This document shows positions 18,971-20,992 of a stretch of DNA of 64,000 nucleotides, piece by piece (position 1 is the first letter of the stretch; each line of letters begins with the position of its first letter). Under the pieces are notes generated by a model. The model was given only the letters and a program-made list of their open reading frames with translations, had not been told where the DNA came from and searched no databases. The position numbers were made by a program, and so were the translations under genes. The stretch covers positions 444 to 64,443 of the forward strand of contig JAYODW010000020.1 in NCBI GenBank assembly GCA_038116745.1, read 5' to 3'. Origin of the DNA: Gammaproteobacteria bacterium. Its GTDB lineage: Bacteria > Pseudomonadota > Gammaproteobacteria > Ga0077536.

Positions 18971-19978
18971 TCAGAGCGGATAGCCGACCGGCTCACCATC
19001 TTCGAGGAGCTCGATGTACTCCGTGATCCCCATCCCTTCGCGCCCGTCCCAGCGCCACAGGGTCAGCCCTTCGGCAATGCGCGACTCGAGCGTCCGGCCA
19101 TCTATTTTTCGGTGATTGCGCAGCGGCGCGAGCGTCAGAATCTCGCCCTCCATACGCACCGCGCGCCGGTCGGTGCGCACGCCCAGGCTAATGCGATGCG
19201 GGTCCTTAGCTGCAGTCCACTCGGTCATCAGATCAAGATCGGTAATTTCTTCGTACTCACCATCGAACTGCAGCACGCCCTGGCGGCGGGTGACACCATC
19301 GCGCCCCGTAATCTTCAGCAGCATCATTGCGCGGTCAGGACCGAAATTGGCAATCAGCAGGCGATAAAAATAGATGTTGGTCCAGTAGCGCGGTCCCCAG
19401 GAGTGATCGCGCCACCCCAGGGCATCAAAGGTCCATTGCTGTCCGTCCACTGCAATAGACCCCTGAGTGCGCATGTGCTGATTGAAATGCCCCAGCGAGA
19501 AATCGCGCCCGTACATCGTCTCCTGGCTGTCCGTGAGCGGCTCACCGCCGTGCAGCGGTGACACGCCCTCGAGCTGGAAATCGACAACCGCCGCTGCCCG
19601 CGGTGCCTCGGCGAACAGAGCACGCGGATTGCGCAGCAGCTCGGGGTCGTCGAGGAGCATCAACTCCCCCTCATAGCGCATGGCTACCCGCTTGAACGGC
19701 TCGTGCACCTGGTAGCTCAAACCACCCGCGGTGAAGCGCTGATTGTCCTCAAGCTCCGGCCTGCGGAACTGGCAGGCAATACGTCCGTCCGGCAGATAAA
19801 GACAGACCTGCATCTCGGCGTGTCCCTCGTTCGGCCGGTTACCCAGGCGCATCCAGCCCCCGAAGCGTCGCTCCAGCTCGAAGCCATTCACATACACGCT
19901 TTCGTTGAAATTACTGTCTGCGCTGGGTGAATGGTTGTATTCGTCAGCAGGGCTCAAGCGGTATTCCGCCATCAGCAT
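18971..19978 (-). CDS. Conserved hypothetical protein, tandem paralogue A (335 aa)
   Basis: High-GC3 ORF with no signal peptide or TM segment. It shares NESVYVN, CLYLPDGRIACQF, GRDFSLGHFNQH, GWRDHSWGPR and a GEPV..PL terminus with the gene at 19991-20992. Confidence 0.75.
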   Translation of the reverse strand: MLMAEYRLSPADEYNHSPSADSNFNESVYVNGFELERRFGGWMRLGNRPNEGHAEMQVCLYLPDGRIACQFRRPELEDNQRFTAGGLSYQVHEPFKRVAMRYEGELMLLDDPELLRNPRALFAEAPRAAAVVDFQLEGVSPLHGGEPLTDSQETMYGRDFSLGHFNQHMRTQGSIAVDGQQWTFDALGWRDHSWGPRYWTNIYFYRLLIANFGPDRAMMLLKITGRDGVTRRQGVLQFDGEYEEITDLDLMTEWTAAKDPHRISLGVRTDRRAVRMEGEILTLAPLRNHRKIDGRTLESRIAEGLTLWRWDGREGMGITEYIELLEDGEPVGYPL

Positions 19979-19990
19979 TTCCTTTGTCAG

Positions 19991-20992
19991 TCAGAGAGGC
20001 CAGGCCACCGGCTCCCCATGGTCGAGTTGCTCAACATACTCGGTCATCCCGAACCCAATCCGGCCGTCCCACTCGAATCGGGTGAACGCTTCGGCAATCC
20101 GCGAATGGAGCGTGGCCTCACCGTAGCGTCGTTTGTTACTCAGTGGTGCGTTGCTGATCACCTGGCCGCGGATGATCGCTTTATGGGAAGCAGTGCGCAC
20201 GCTGAGCTGCACCGCAGTCGGGTCTTTCCGCGCATCCCACTCAGTCAATACATCGAGATCCATCACAGGCTCGTAATCGCCGTTTACAAAAAGCACGCCC
20301 GCACGCCTGATCCCGCCGTCGCGGTTGGCGATTTTCAACAGGGTAATGCCGTATTGCGGGCCAAAGCTGGCATAGAAGCCGCGGTCGAAAAGGATGTTCT
20401 GCCACAGCCGTGGTCCCCAGGAATGGTCTCTCCAGCCATAGCCGTCGAAACTGAAATCAGTATCTCCGATCCGCATGCGCGCACGAACGGCGGTGTGCTG
20501 ATTGAAATGCCCGAGAGAGAAATCCCGCCCGAACATGGTCTGCTGTCCAGGTTCGCACGGCAGTCCGCCGTGAATCGGCGAGCAGCCCTCGACGACCCAT
20601 TCCAGGTCGCAGGCGGCGCGTGGGCTCTCCGCGAACAGACGCTTGGGCTCACGGAAAAGTCCTGGATCCGATACCAGCATGACCTCGCCGGAAAAACGCA
20701 TCGCGACTTCCCGATGCGGCGTGATGACCTCGTAGCTCAGCCCCCCGGCAGAGAAGCGCTGGTTGTCAGTAATAGTCGGGCGCTGGAACTGGCACGCAAT
20801 TCGACCATCCGGCAGGTACAGACACACCGCCAGCTCCGCATAACCCTCATTCGCGCGGTTGCCCAGACGGATCCAGCCTCCAAGTTCTCGCGCGTGGTCA
20901 AACGCGTTGACGTAGACGCTCTCGTTGAAATGAAGTTCGTCTCCCGGCGCGTGGGGGTACTCGTCAGTTTCCAGCAGTCGATAGTCGCCCAT
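19991..20992 (-). CDS. Conserved hypothetical protein, tandem paralogue B (333 aa)
   Basis: Co-linear with paralogue A over its full length, with a 12-nt gap to the next gene. Confidence 0.75.
   Translation of the reverse strand: MGDYRLLETDEYPHAPGDELHFNESVYVNAFDHARELGGWIRLGNRANEGYAELAVCLYLPDGRIACQFQRPTITDNQRFSAGGLSYEVITPHREVAMRFSGEVMLVSDPGLFREPKRLFAESPRAACDLEWVVEGCSPIHGGLPCEPGQQTMFGRDFSLGHFNQHTAVRARMRIGDTDFSFDGYGWRDHSWGPRLWQNILFDRGFYASFGPQYGITLLKIANRDGGIRRAGVLFVNGDYEPVMDLDVLTEWDARKDPTAVQLSVRTASHKAIIRGQVISNAPLSNKRRYGEATLHSRIAEAFTRFEWDGRIGFGMTEYVEQLDHGEPVAWPL

Follow-up and report, generated by a model that had tools for sequence, protein, structure and literature searches.

Tandem DUF7065/DUF7064 paralogues beside an APH-family kinase in a gammaproteobacterium are candidate cofactor-independent phosphate-eliminating C-O lyases

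Two described systems dehydrate an alcohol at the expense of ATP by way of a phosphoester. In Sterolibacterium denitrificans, the 25-hydroxysteroid kinase (25-HSK) makes a high-energy tertiary phosphoester, from which a separate C-O lyase, 25-phosphosteroid lyase (25-PSL), produces the delta-24 alkene (PMC8449060, PMC11061730). LvaAB and LvaC of Pseudomonas putida, as well as the mammalian ACAD10 and ACAD11, act by the same kinase-then-eliminate scheme on 4-hydroxyacyl-CoA, the eliminating enzyme being a special acyl-CoA dehydrogenase (ACAD; PMC11342911, PMC6692424); LvaB is a 12-kDa partner of the LvaA kinase (PMC6692424). The combination of a kinase with a phosphate lyase of the AttH fold is known from one example, 25-PSL of an anaerobic steroid degrader. 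Here we analyze a tandem pair of paralogous genes, A and B, located next to the gene of an APH (aminoglycoside phosphotransferase)-family kinase in a 64,000-nt stretch (further referred to as the window) of contig JAYODW010000020.1 of a Gammaproteobacteria bacterium (assembly GCA_038116745.1). We propose, with a probability of roughly 0.55, that both paralogues are cofactor-independent C-O lyases, eliminating phosphate from the phosphoester made by this kinase. What is new here is a sister family of the one that includes 25-PSL, placed in an acyl-CoA/Lva-like context, duplicated in tandem and, in some eukaryotes, fused to the kinase.

Both proteins exceed the gathering cut-offs of the Pfam models DUF7065 in the N-terminal part (27 bits; 54.9 for B and 44.8 for A) and DUF7064 in the C-terminal part (24.7 bits; 76.3 for B and 57.1 for A). 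A literature search on these two families and on DUF6285, the family of a small protein encoded after the kinase, found no relevant paper. The first-pass annotation had assigned the pair to no characterised family, which is correct as far as the curated Pfam models are concerned; however, A and B turned out to be remote homologues of the Rv3169 family, which includes 25-PSL and has crystal structures. The NCBIfam model Rv3169_fam (NF053593) gave 45 bits for B and 29 bits for A (E = 7e-12 and 5e-7, respectively), far under the cut-off of 150 bits. A metagenomic open reading frame (ORF; contig AMWB02168521.1, 1579-2667), 91% identical to the crystallised 25-PSL over the 90 available residues, scored 393 bits (E = 1e-117) along its full length with the same model, while its only Pfam matches were sub-threshold ones to DUF7065 (E = 0.076) and DUF7064 (E = 0.12). 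Accordingly, 25-PSL is a member of the Rv3169 family, and A and B, which stay under the cut-off, represent a sister family.

The relationship is visible at the level of profiles. The profile of the family alignment A1, searched against all PDB sequences, had 25-PSL as its sole near-match (E = 0.11), with NFNESVYVN aligned to NFYDRYYFN, RLGNRxNEG to GLGQYPNLG, and GWRDHSWGPR to GSRDRSWGVR; a single-sequence phmmer search of the PDB sequences with B returned one chance P450 match and nothing else. Searching the protein collection with the 90-residue fragment of 25-PSL yielded short fragments only; 80 metagenome loci of the 25-PSL family were recovered, from which 60 full-length ORFs were extracted. 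Comparison of A1 with these 60 ORFs by hhalign gave a probability of 96.2% (E = 2.5e-9) over residues 15-197, and of 95.3% in a global run.

The AlphaFold2 (AF2) models of B (pLDDT 94.5, pTM 0.92) and A (pLDDT 92.5) are all-beta, as the first-pass annotation had expected of a beta-rich fold. In the Foldseek search against the PDB the ranking was identical for the two models. Five chains of 25-PSL (9FZN, 9G2I, 9G4C; entries released in January 2026) stood first, with E = 5e-13 to 5e-12, TMq of 0.62-0.66 and a probability of 1.00 (best E values 1.6e-12 for B and 5e-13 for A). They were followed by the fungal decalin pericyclases Fsa2, Phm7 and CghA (E = 2e-10 to 5e-8, TM-scores of 0.48-0.60), the AttH protein 2ICH (E = 1.5e-8 and 9e-9, TM-scores of 0.63-0.67) and kievitone hydratase 7A0T (E = 1.5e-7 and 6e-8). 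The first-pass annotation had advised a comparison with AttH/CrtC-like lipocalin hydratases, and as regards the fold this was on target. In Pfam, neither the CrtC nor the AttH model matched A or B at E <= 0.1.

The residues R-D-x-S-W-G-x-R, together with the N-terminal NF-x-[DE], are common to A, B and 25-PSL. The pattern R-D-[HRK]-S-W-G-x-R is present in 64 of the 73 full-length representatives of the family and in 59 of the 60 ORFs of the 25-PSL family, and the motif residues, including the Asp, are invariant in the family alignments A1 and A2. The apo and phosphate forms of 25-PSL have the motif as GSRDRSWGVR; in 9G4C, the complex with phosphate and desmost-1,4-diene-3-one, it is GSRNRSWGVR. 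As this product complex carries Asn in place of the Asp, the corresponding residue of the paralogues (D191 in B and D189 in A) is probably catalytic. As had been suggested at the outset on the strength of acidic, His and Trp residues, the family looks like one of enzymes; Asp, His, Trp and Arg are among its invariant residues.

Gene order, linkage and fusions provide independent evidence that the paralogues act in a step consecutive with that of the kinase. The tight coupling of the pair to the kinase had been claimed from the spacing of the genes, a 20-nt spacer separating B from the kinase gene, and loss of the kinase/ACAD neighbourhood in other genomes had been named beforehand as the finding that would speak against it. 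We collected 40 genome loci with relatives of B, 36 of them with room downstream, and in 31 of the 36 an APH gene stands directly after B, usually followed by genes of DUF6285, a crotonase, an ACAD and a short-chain dehydrogenase/reductase (SDR); the kinase/ACAD neighbourhood is thus conserved, and the coupling withstood this check. Ten more distant contexts, at 25-60% identity, were also considered, and seven contain an APH-superfamily kinase gene within 5 kb. The order is APH, small protein, ligase, ACAD, DUF in Sulfitobacter alexandrii; SDR-APH-DUF-ECH in Cupriavidus metallidurans CH34; APH-DUF in Pseudonocardia; and TetR, then APH-DUF-ligase-ACAD-ACAD in Mycobacterium branderi. In Variovorax paradoxus APH-DUF6285-ACAD lies about 4.5 kb from the DUF7065/64 gene, in Rhodococcus USK10 an APH-superfamily kinase is encoded in the same cluster, and M. 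avium pP7a has an EcKL kinase. The 25-PSL family proper shows the same association, an APH gene being found directly upstream in five metagenome loci, and in M. tuberculosis the genes of Rv3168 (an APH protein) and Rv3169 form one operon, repressed by the TetR repressor Rv3167c (PMC5340868).

Moreover, APH, DUF7065 and DUF7064 occur in single polypeptides of 611-784 aa in at least five clusters (P0289, P0301, P0303, P0370, P0344), with APH at the N-terminus and both the kinase motif HGDYKFDN and the lyase motif GLRDHSWGPR intact. One of these fusions comes from EukProt, and two (L123:8001-10217 and L124:5999-8239) are encoded on contigs that also carry genes of eukaryotic type (LRR, SH3-NADPH oxidase, PI3K, 7TM-RGS). 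As a separate observation, the gene of a phosphoenolpyruvate (PEP)-utilising enzyme of about 535-570 aa adjoins the DUF7065/64 gene in two mutually unrelated contexts, L127:1315-3027 and L136:7103-8707 (M. avium plasmid pP7a). The protein is similar to rifampin phosphotransferase, PigC or PEP synthase in their C-terminal part; this phosphotransfer protein has no relation to APH and may stand in for the kinase partner as a non-homologous substitute.

The operon, whose boundaries are defined by gene spacing alone, runs along the minus strand in the order of Table 1, with gaps of 41, 12, 20, 9, 97, 67 and -4 nt. The best PDB sequence matches of the kinase are the kinase domain of ACAD11 (8V3V, 3.8e-14), 3DXP, 9FSG (annotated as "aminoglycoside phosphotransferase-like protein") and Rv3168 (3ATS/3ATT), and its best NCBIfam match, LxmK, is far under the cut-off; we presume it to be the partner that makes the phosphoester. 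The DUF6285 gene, retained after the kinase gene in about 30 loci, holds the position of the gene of LvaB, a protein of similar size. The best PDB match of the crotonase is 1,2-epoxyphenylacetyl-CoA isomerase (4FZW_C, 3.5e-40), making an enoyl-CoA isomerase or hydratase possible. The SDR is nearest to the AtuB-like dehydrogenase of citronellol catabolism and to enoyl- and 2,4-dienoyl-CoA reductases: its best NCBIfam match is the 2,4-dienoyl-CoA reductase PRK07677 (168.5 bits, under the cut-off), and its PDB matches are 6LLN, 3IMF, 1YXM and 4FC6, with 7UCW and 1W6U lower down. The MetE-like gene at the head of the operon scores well under the cut-offs for true MetE, its orthologues are restricted to the four closest related loci (L005, L006, L008, L009), and it is an accessory gene. 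The scan for promoters and terminators (14000-22500) gave fewer sites than shuffled sequence, and the Rfam scan of the window found nothing.

Table 1. Positions in the window of the operon genes, in operon order, and of the putative catalytic motifs
Feature	Coordinates	Strand	Remarks
MetE-like protein	21034-22203	minus	First gene of the operon; 389 aa; Meth_synt_2 catalytic domain only; Pfam 108.7 bits
Paralogue A	19991-20992	minus	333 aa; DUF7065 + DUF7064; A lineage; predicted AttH-like/25-PSL-like fold
Paralogue B	18971-19978	minus	335 aa; DUF7065 + DUF7064; B lineage, adjacent to the kinase
APH-family kinase	17925-18950	minus	341 aa; Pfam APH 105.8 bits; HGDFRLGN and DWE motifs intact
DUF6285 protein	17538-17915	minus	125 aa; Pfam 58.3 bits; 9 nt after the kinase gene
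Crotonase-family protein, PaaG-like	16661-17440	minus	259 aa; Pfam ECH_1 160.6 bits
Acyl-CoA dehydrogenase, isovaleryl-CoA-dehydrogenase-like	15400-16593	minus	397 aa; Pfam; isovaleryl-CoA dehydrogenase 4O5M, 3.9e-101
SDR, AtuB/enoyl-CoA reductase/2,4-dienoyl-CoA reductase clade	14495-15403	minus	302 aa; Pfam; overlaps the ACAD stop codon by 4 nt
Motif of A, R188-D189-H190-S191-W192-G193-P194-R195	20408-20431	minus	Invariant columns
Motif of B, R190-D191-H192-S193-W194-G195-P196-R197	19388-19411	minus	Putative phosphate-binding/catalytic; aligned to 25-PSL

The operon resembles the Lva system in several points. The best solved relative of the kinase is the kinase domain of ACAD11, a gene for a partner of about 12 kDa comes right after it, and an ACAD and an SDR are encoded in the same operon; the APH-ACAD fusion of ACAD10/11 is paralleled by the eukaryotic APH-DUF7065-DUF7064 fusions. 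What differs is the eliminating enzyme. The operon ACAD is similar to isovaleryl-CoA dehydrogenase, has no ACAD11 among the 60 PDB matches listed and is 27% identical to the LvaC-type reference. All four ACADs of the window were considered as possible equivalents of LvaC and rejected: identity to the LvaC-type reference is at most 28%, and ACAD11 is absent from the PDB matches listed. Because none of the four is of the LvaC/ACAD10/11 type, A and B are the only candidates in the operon for removal of the phosphate, and the flavoenzyme of the known systems would be replaced here by an unrelated, cofactor-free beta-barrel.

The proposed course of events is as follows. The kinase with its small DUF6285 partner would phosphorylate the hydroxyl of a hydroxyacyl-CoA at the expense of ATP. 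A and/or B would bind the phosphoester, expel inorganic phosphate and leave a C=C bond, the motif Asp participating in proton abstraction and the flanking Arg residues holding the phosphate. The resulting enoyl-CoA with an unusually placed double bond could then be directed into beta-oxidation by the ACAD, the AtuB/dienoyl-CoA-reductase-like SDR and the PaaG-like crotonase. Overall, ATP would drive the dehydration of an alcohol which ordinary beta-oxidation cannot process. Alternatively, by analogy with LvaD, the SDR could act first, reducing an oxoacyl-CoA to the alcohol. In this scheme we infer the lyase activity, the acyl-CoA nature of the alcohol and its position, the roles of the downstream enzymes, and the difference in specificity, or the association, of A and B. 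The first-pass annotation had placed a hydratase or lyase upstream of the kinase, as the source of its hydroxyacyl substrate. Lyase is probably the right class, while the order of the steps is probably the reverse, since 25-PSL consumes the product of its kinase and nothing else in the operon could remove the phosphate.

With 25-PSL and 25-HSK the paralogues and their kinase share the fold, the detectable profile homology, the length (333-362 aa), the lack of cofactor motifs, an APH-superfamily kinase as the partner and, as proposed for A and B, the logic of ATP-dependent dehydration via a phosphoester. The differences concern assignment to different Pfam models and the genomic context, which includes Mo-dependent steroid hydroxylases in the case of 25-PSL and genes of acyl-CoA beta-oxidation and DUF6285 in the case of A and B; besides, A and B are two diverged tandem paralogues tightly linked to the kinase, whereas no candidate lyase gene was found near the 25-HSK gene of S. 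denitrificans (PMC8449060). A more remote analogy, and an analogy only, is offered by the lanthipeptide synthetases of classes III-V (e.g., LxmK), in which an APH-like kinase is combined with a separate phosphate-eliminating lyase, though the substrate is a peptide and the lyase fold is unrelated.

Several facts weigh against the lyase assignment. A and B are only about 15% identical to 25-PSL and remain far from the cut-off of the Rv3169 model, and the role of the Asp is deduced from a deposited mutant. Adjacency and fusion to the kinase leave the order of the steps unfixed, and in three of the ten distant contexts no kinase gene lies within 4-6 kb; this latter fact carries little weight, given that 25-HSK and 25-PSL are likewise encoded by unlinked genes. 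The operon of Sulfitobacter has, beside the DUF gene, an ACAD of the ACAD11/LvaC type (2.6e-126), and three Porticoccaceae loci carry an LvaC-type ACAD gene 3.4 kb from B, beside a third paralogue. Finally, by TM-score A and B are no closer to 25-PSL (0.58-0.66) than to the AttH protein, which means that the fold alone cannot separate a lyase from a hydratase; it is the sequence evidence that makes the lyase branch the closest one.

The hydratase alternative implies that the paralogues act upstream of the kinase, adding water to an acyl C=C bond, as CrtC and kievitone hydratase do, the alcohol being phosphorylated afterwards. The cofactor-free hydratases belong to the same fold superfamily, share the two-barrel all-beta architecture and interconvert alkenes and alcohols in what is formally the reverse reaction; adjacency and fusion to the kinase fit both orders of the steps, and in three contexts no kinase is encoded nearby. 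However, all the sequence-level evidence favours the lyase branch, the Pfam models of the hydratases do not recognize A and B, and the hydratases need no kinase partner and act on free terpenoids or flavonoids. Furthermore, nothing encoded in the operon, neither an LvaC-type ACAD nor a phosphatase, would remove the phosphoester formed in this way, and the abundance of invariant Arg residues agrees with an anionic phosphate as the ligand. On balance, we consider hydration upstream of the kinase unlikely.

Another possibility is that the paralogues are accessory to a complete pathway of the Lva/ACAD10/11 type, in which the phosphate is removed by an LvaC-type enzyme encoded elsewhere in the genome; the tasks left for A and B could be the other enantiomer, a second hydroxyl, isomerisation of a double bond or opening of a lactone. 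The kinase of ACAD10 has a strong preference for the R enantiomer, and hence a different route is required for the S form (PMC11342911). On a Sulfitobacter plasmid, a homologue with 60% identity ends an operon of a TRAP transporter, APH, a small protein, an acyl-CoA ligase and the ACAD11-type ACAD, and the Porticoccaceae loci mentioned above fit this explanation as well. The notion that the DUF protein always replaces LvaC was rejected, as both are encoded in the Sulfitobacter and Porticoccaceae loci; where they coexist, the DUF protein may handle another substrate, another enantiomer or another step. Still, both the window and about 33 of the 36-40 related loci lack an LvaC-type gene within 10 kb, and the motif common with 25-PSL includes the very residue that was mutated to trap the product, so that a purely accessory role seems improbable to us.

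Finally, a non-catalytic lipid-binding or chaperone barrel presenting a hydrophobic substrate to the kinase, suggested by the lipocalin-like barrels of the fold, or a pericyclase or isomerase comparable to the decalin synthases of fungi, suggested by their second rank among the structural matches, deserves very little credence, as 112 positions with an Asp/His/Arg cluster typical of catalysis are conserved in both lineages, and the pericyclases, encoded in gene clusters of polyketide synthases (PKS) and nonribosomal peptide synthetases (NRPS), resemble A and B in structure only, with lower TM-scores, A and B being encoded in a catabolic acyl-CoA operon in which no PKS/NRPS genes were found.

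The preferred lyase assignment concerns two genuine genes. Both ORFs were found at the positions reported by the first-pass annotation, on the minus strand, with the spacers of 12 nt (19979-19990) between A and B and 20 nt (18951-18970) before the kinase gene, and their reality is supported by 2820 homologues (E <= 0.001) in a collection of 5.8 billion proteins and by 1718 clusters at 50% identity matching the family profile among 1.84 billion representatives. The proteins are true paralogues, aligned by BLASTP end-to-end with 186 identities of 333 (56%), no gaps and E = 1e-142. The first-pass annotation had noticed by eye that the similarity is highest over the first 125 residues or so, and this is the case, with 64% identical residues in the segment 1-125, 53% in 126-200 and 50% in 201-333. 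All the shared blocks that it listed (NESVYVN, GGW.RLGNR.NEG.AE..VCLYLPDGRIACQF.RP...DNQRF.AGGLSY, GRDFSLGHFNQH, GWRDHSWGPR.W and EY(I/V)E.L..GEPV..PL) were located. It was also right about transmembrane segments: neither protein has a hydrophobic stretch, the maximum Kyte-Doolittle mean over 19 residues being 0.84. Ribosome-binding sites of the GGAGG type precede A, the kinase gene and the small DUF6285 ORF. As for B, its true start is probably 19972, giving a protein of 333 aa, since its homologues are of this length and the distance of the AAGGAA site is more favourable to the second ATG. Two plus-strand ORFs antisense to the pair (19931-21082, 383 aa, and 19112-19561, 149 aa) were dismissed as shadow ORFs of a region with 60% G+C.

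In the neighbour-joining tree the homologues form the A lineage, the B lineage and a third one; the A/B split is older than the divergence of these Gammaproteobacteria. In about 11 loci A immediately precedes B, and in about 9 it is found at a distance of 0.2-5 kb, its usual neighbours being the gene of a luciferase-like monooxygenase or the MetE-like gene, and in at least 12 related genomes a copy of the A lineage is absent within 5-10 kb of B. The 112 positions common to both lineages include every putative catalytic residue, while five are lineage-specific (T200Q, Y203L, Y205D, T224A, I322V), three of them just past the catalytic motif. The first-pass annotation had raised the possibility of a heteromer. 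If it is meant to be obligatory, this is not supported by the genomes with B and no A nearby, nor by the crystals of 25-PSL, which contain identical chains; we had considered 25-PSL itself as a heterodimer of paralogues, but discarded the idea, as 9FZN and 9G2I have one sequence despite the separately listed chains A and B. An obligatory A/B heteromer is therefore unlikely. Since A is missing near B in these genomes, the catalytic residues are kept in both lineages and the chains of 25-PSL are identical, we favour two enzymes, both probably active, with different specificity. The third lineage, represented in Porticoccaceae metagenome-assembled genomes (L024:1238-2320, L033:4128-5201), has about 40% identity to A and B and strong DUF7064/7065 matches; its genes are divergent from the gene of the LvaC/ACAD11-type ACAD and lie 5 kb from the B-kinase pair.

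The surroundings of the operon form an island of lipid/acyl-CoA catabolism, with genes of acyl-CoA synthetase, electron transfer flavoprotein (ETF) alpha and beta, ETF-ubiquinone oxidoreductase and glutaryl-CoA dehydrogenase; in the first 34 kb of the window the annotated ORFs include no Mo-hydroxylase or steroid ring genes. The ETF, ETF-ubiquinone oxidoreductase and glutaryl-CoA dehydrogenase genes lie just past the operon, at 7729-12682, and the latter dehydrogenase is bona fide (E = 1.6e-188 to 3GNC) and syntenic in many related loci. Further away, in the region 3366-4655 / 4609-5667 (minus strand), there is a divergent ACAD of 429 aa, whose best PDB matches are "type 2" ACAD-fold proteins, followed by an ORF of 352 aa with no Pfam match at E <= 1e-5 and adjoined by the acyl-CoA synthetase gene (1873-3438). 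Downstream of the operon, at 13696-14160 on the plus strand, a protein of 154 aa with a eukaryote-style RNA-recognition motif (RRM_1, E = 9e-23) is encoded, and the gene keeps this position in many related genomes.

On the other side there are three genes of luciferase-like flavin monooxygenases (23572-24594, 28406-29515 and 62646-63698, all on the plus strand), and, among 25195-26544 (minus), 27008-28360 (plus) and 29569-30528 (minus), genes of a polyhydroxybutyrate (PHB)-depolymerase-like esterase, a DUF1329 (LolA-like) protein and EthD proteins. Several of these genes are syntenic in related genomes, and the A lineage usually has one of the monooxygenases as its neighbour. The whole set might serve as a source of hydroxy acids, e.g., via lactones.

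If the assignment of A and B to phosphate-eliminating lyases is extended to the whole family, DUF7065/DUF7064 proteins would offer a second way, flavin-independent and widespread, of dealing with alcohols that block beta-oxidation, a tentative proposal that could well turn out otherwise. According to it, a kinase of the LvaA/ACAD10/11 type, often with a DUF6285 partner, would activate a gamma-hydroxy or tertiary hydroxyacyl-CoA, and a lyase of the AttH fold would expel the phosphate, replacing the flavoenzyme LvaC/ACAD10/11. Representatives of this module are found in Actinomycetota, mycobacteria among them, as well as in Alpha-, Beta- and Gammaproteobacteria; the kinase-lyase fusion of microbial eukaryotes would be a domain-swapped counterpart of ACAD10/11, and the A and B lineages would correspond to two substrate or stereo-specificities. 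The substrates are perhaps hydroxy acids derived from lactones that the neighbouring luciferase-like (type II Baeyer-Villiger-type) monooxygenases would form.

The same proposal takes in the Rv3168-Rv3169 pair of M. tuberculosis. A literature search on Rv3169 gave matches limited to papers on tuberculosis genomics and regulons. Since the close relative of 25-PSL described above falls within the Rv3169 family and the genes of Rv3169 and the APH kinase Rv3168 are transcribed together, this pair looks like a kinase-lyase dehydration module rather than an aminoglycoside-resistance locus. If this is true, Rv3168-Rv3169 would dehydrate a lipid or sterol alcohol; Rv3168 has hitherto been viewed as a putative aminoglycoside kinase, and Rv3167c has been linked to PDIM and to exit from the host cell. 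As to the family as a whole, the lyase assignment, if true, would give a testable function to two Pfam DUFs comprising about 1700 clusters at 50% identity, would make dehydration by a kinase and an AttH-fold lyase a general catabolic device tied to beta-oxidation, and would set beside the recently solved ACAD10/ACAD11/LvaC route for 4-hydroxy fatty acids a counterpart that works without flavin, with kinase-lyase fusions in eukaryotes. For uncultured Gammaproteobacteria, it would mean a better annotation of the islands of lipid and terpenoid catabolism.

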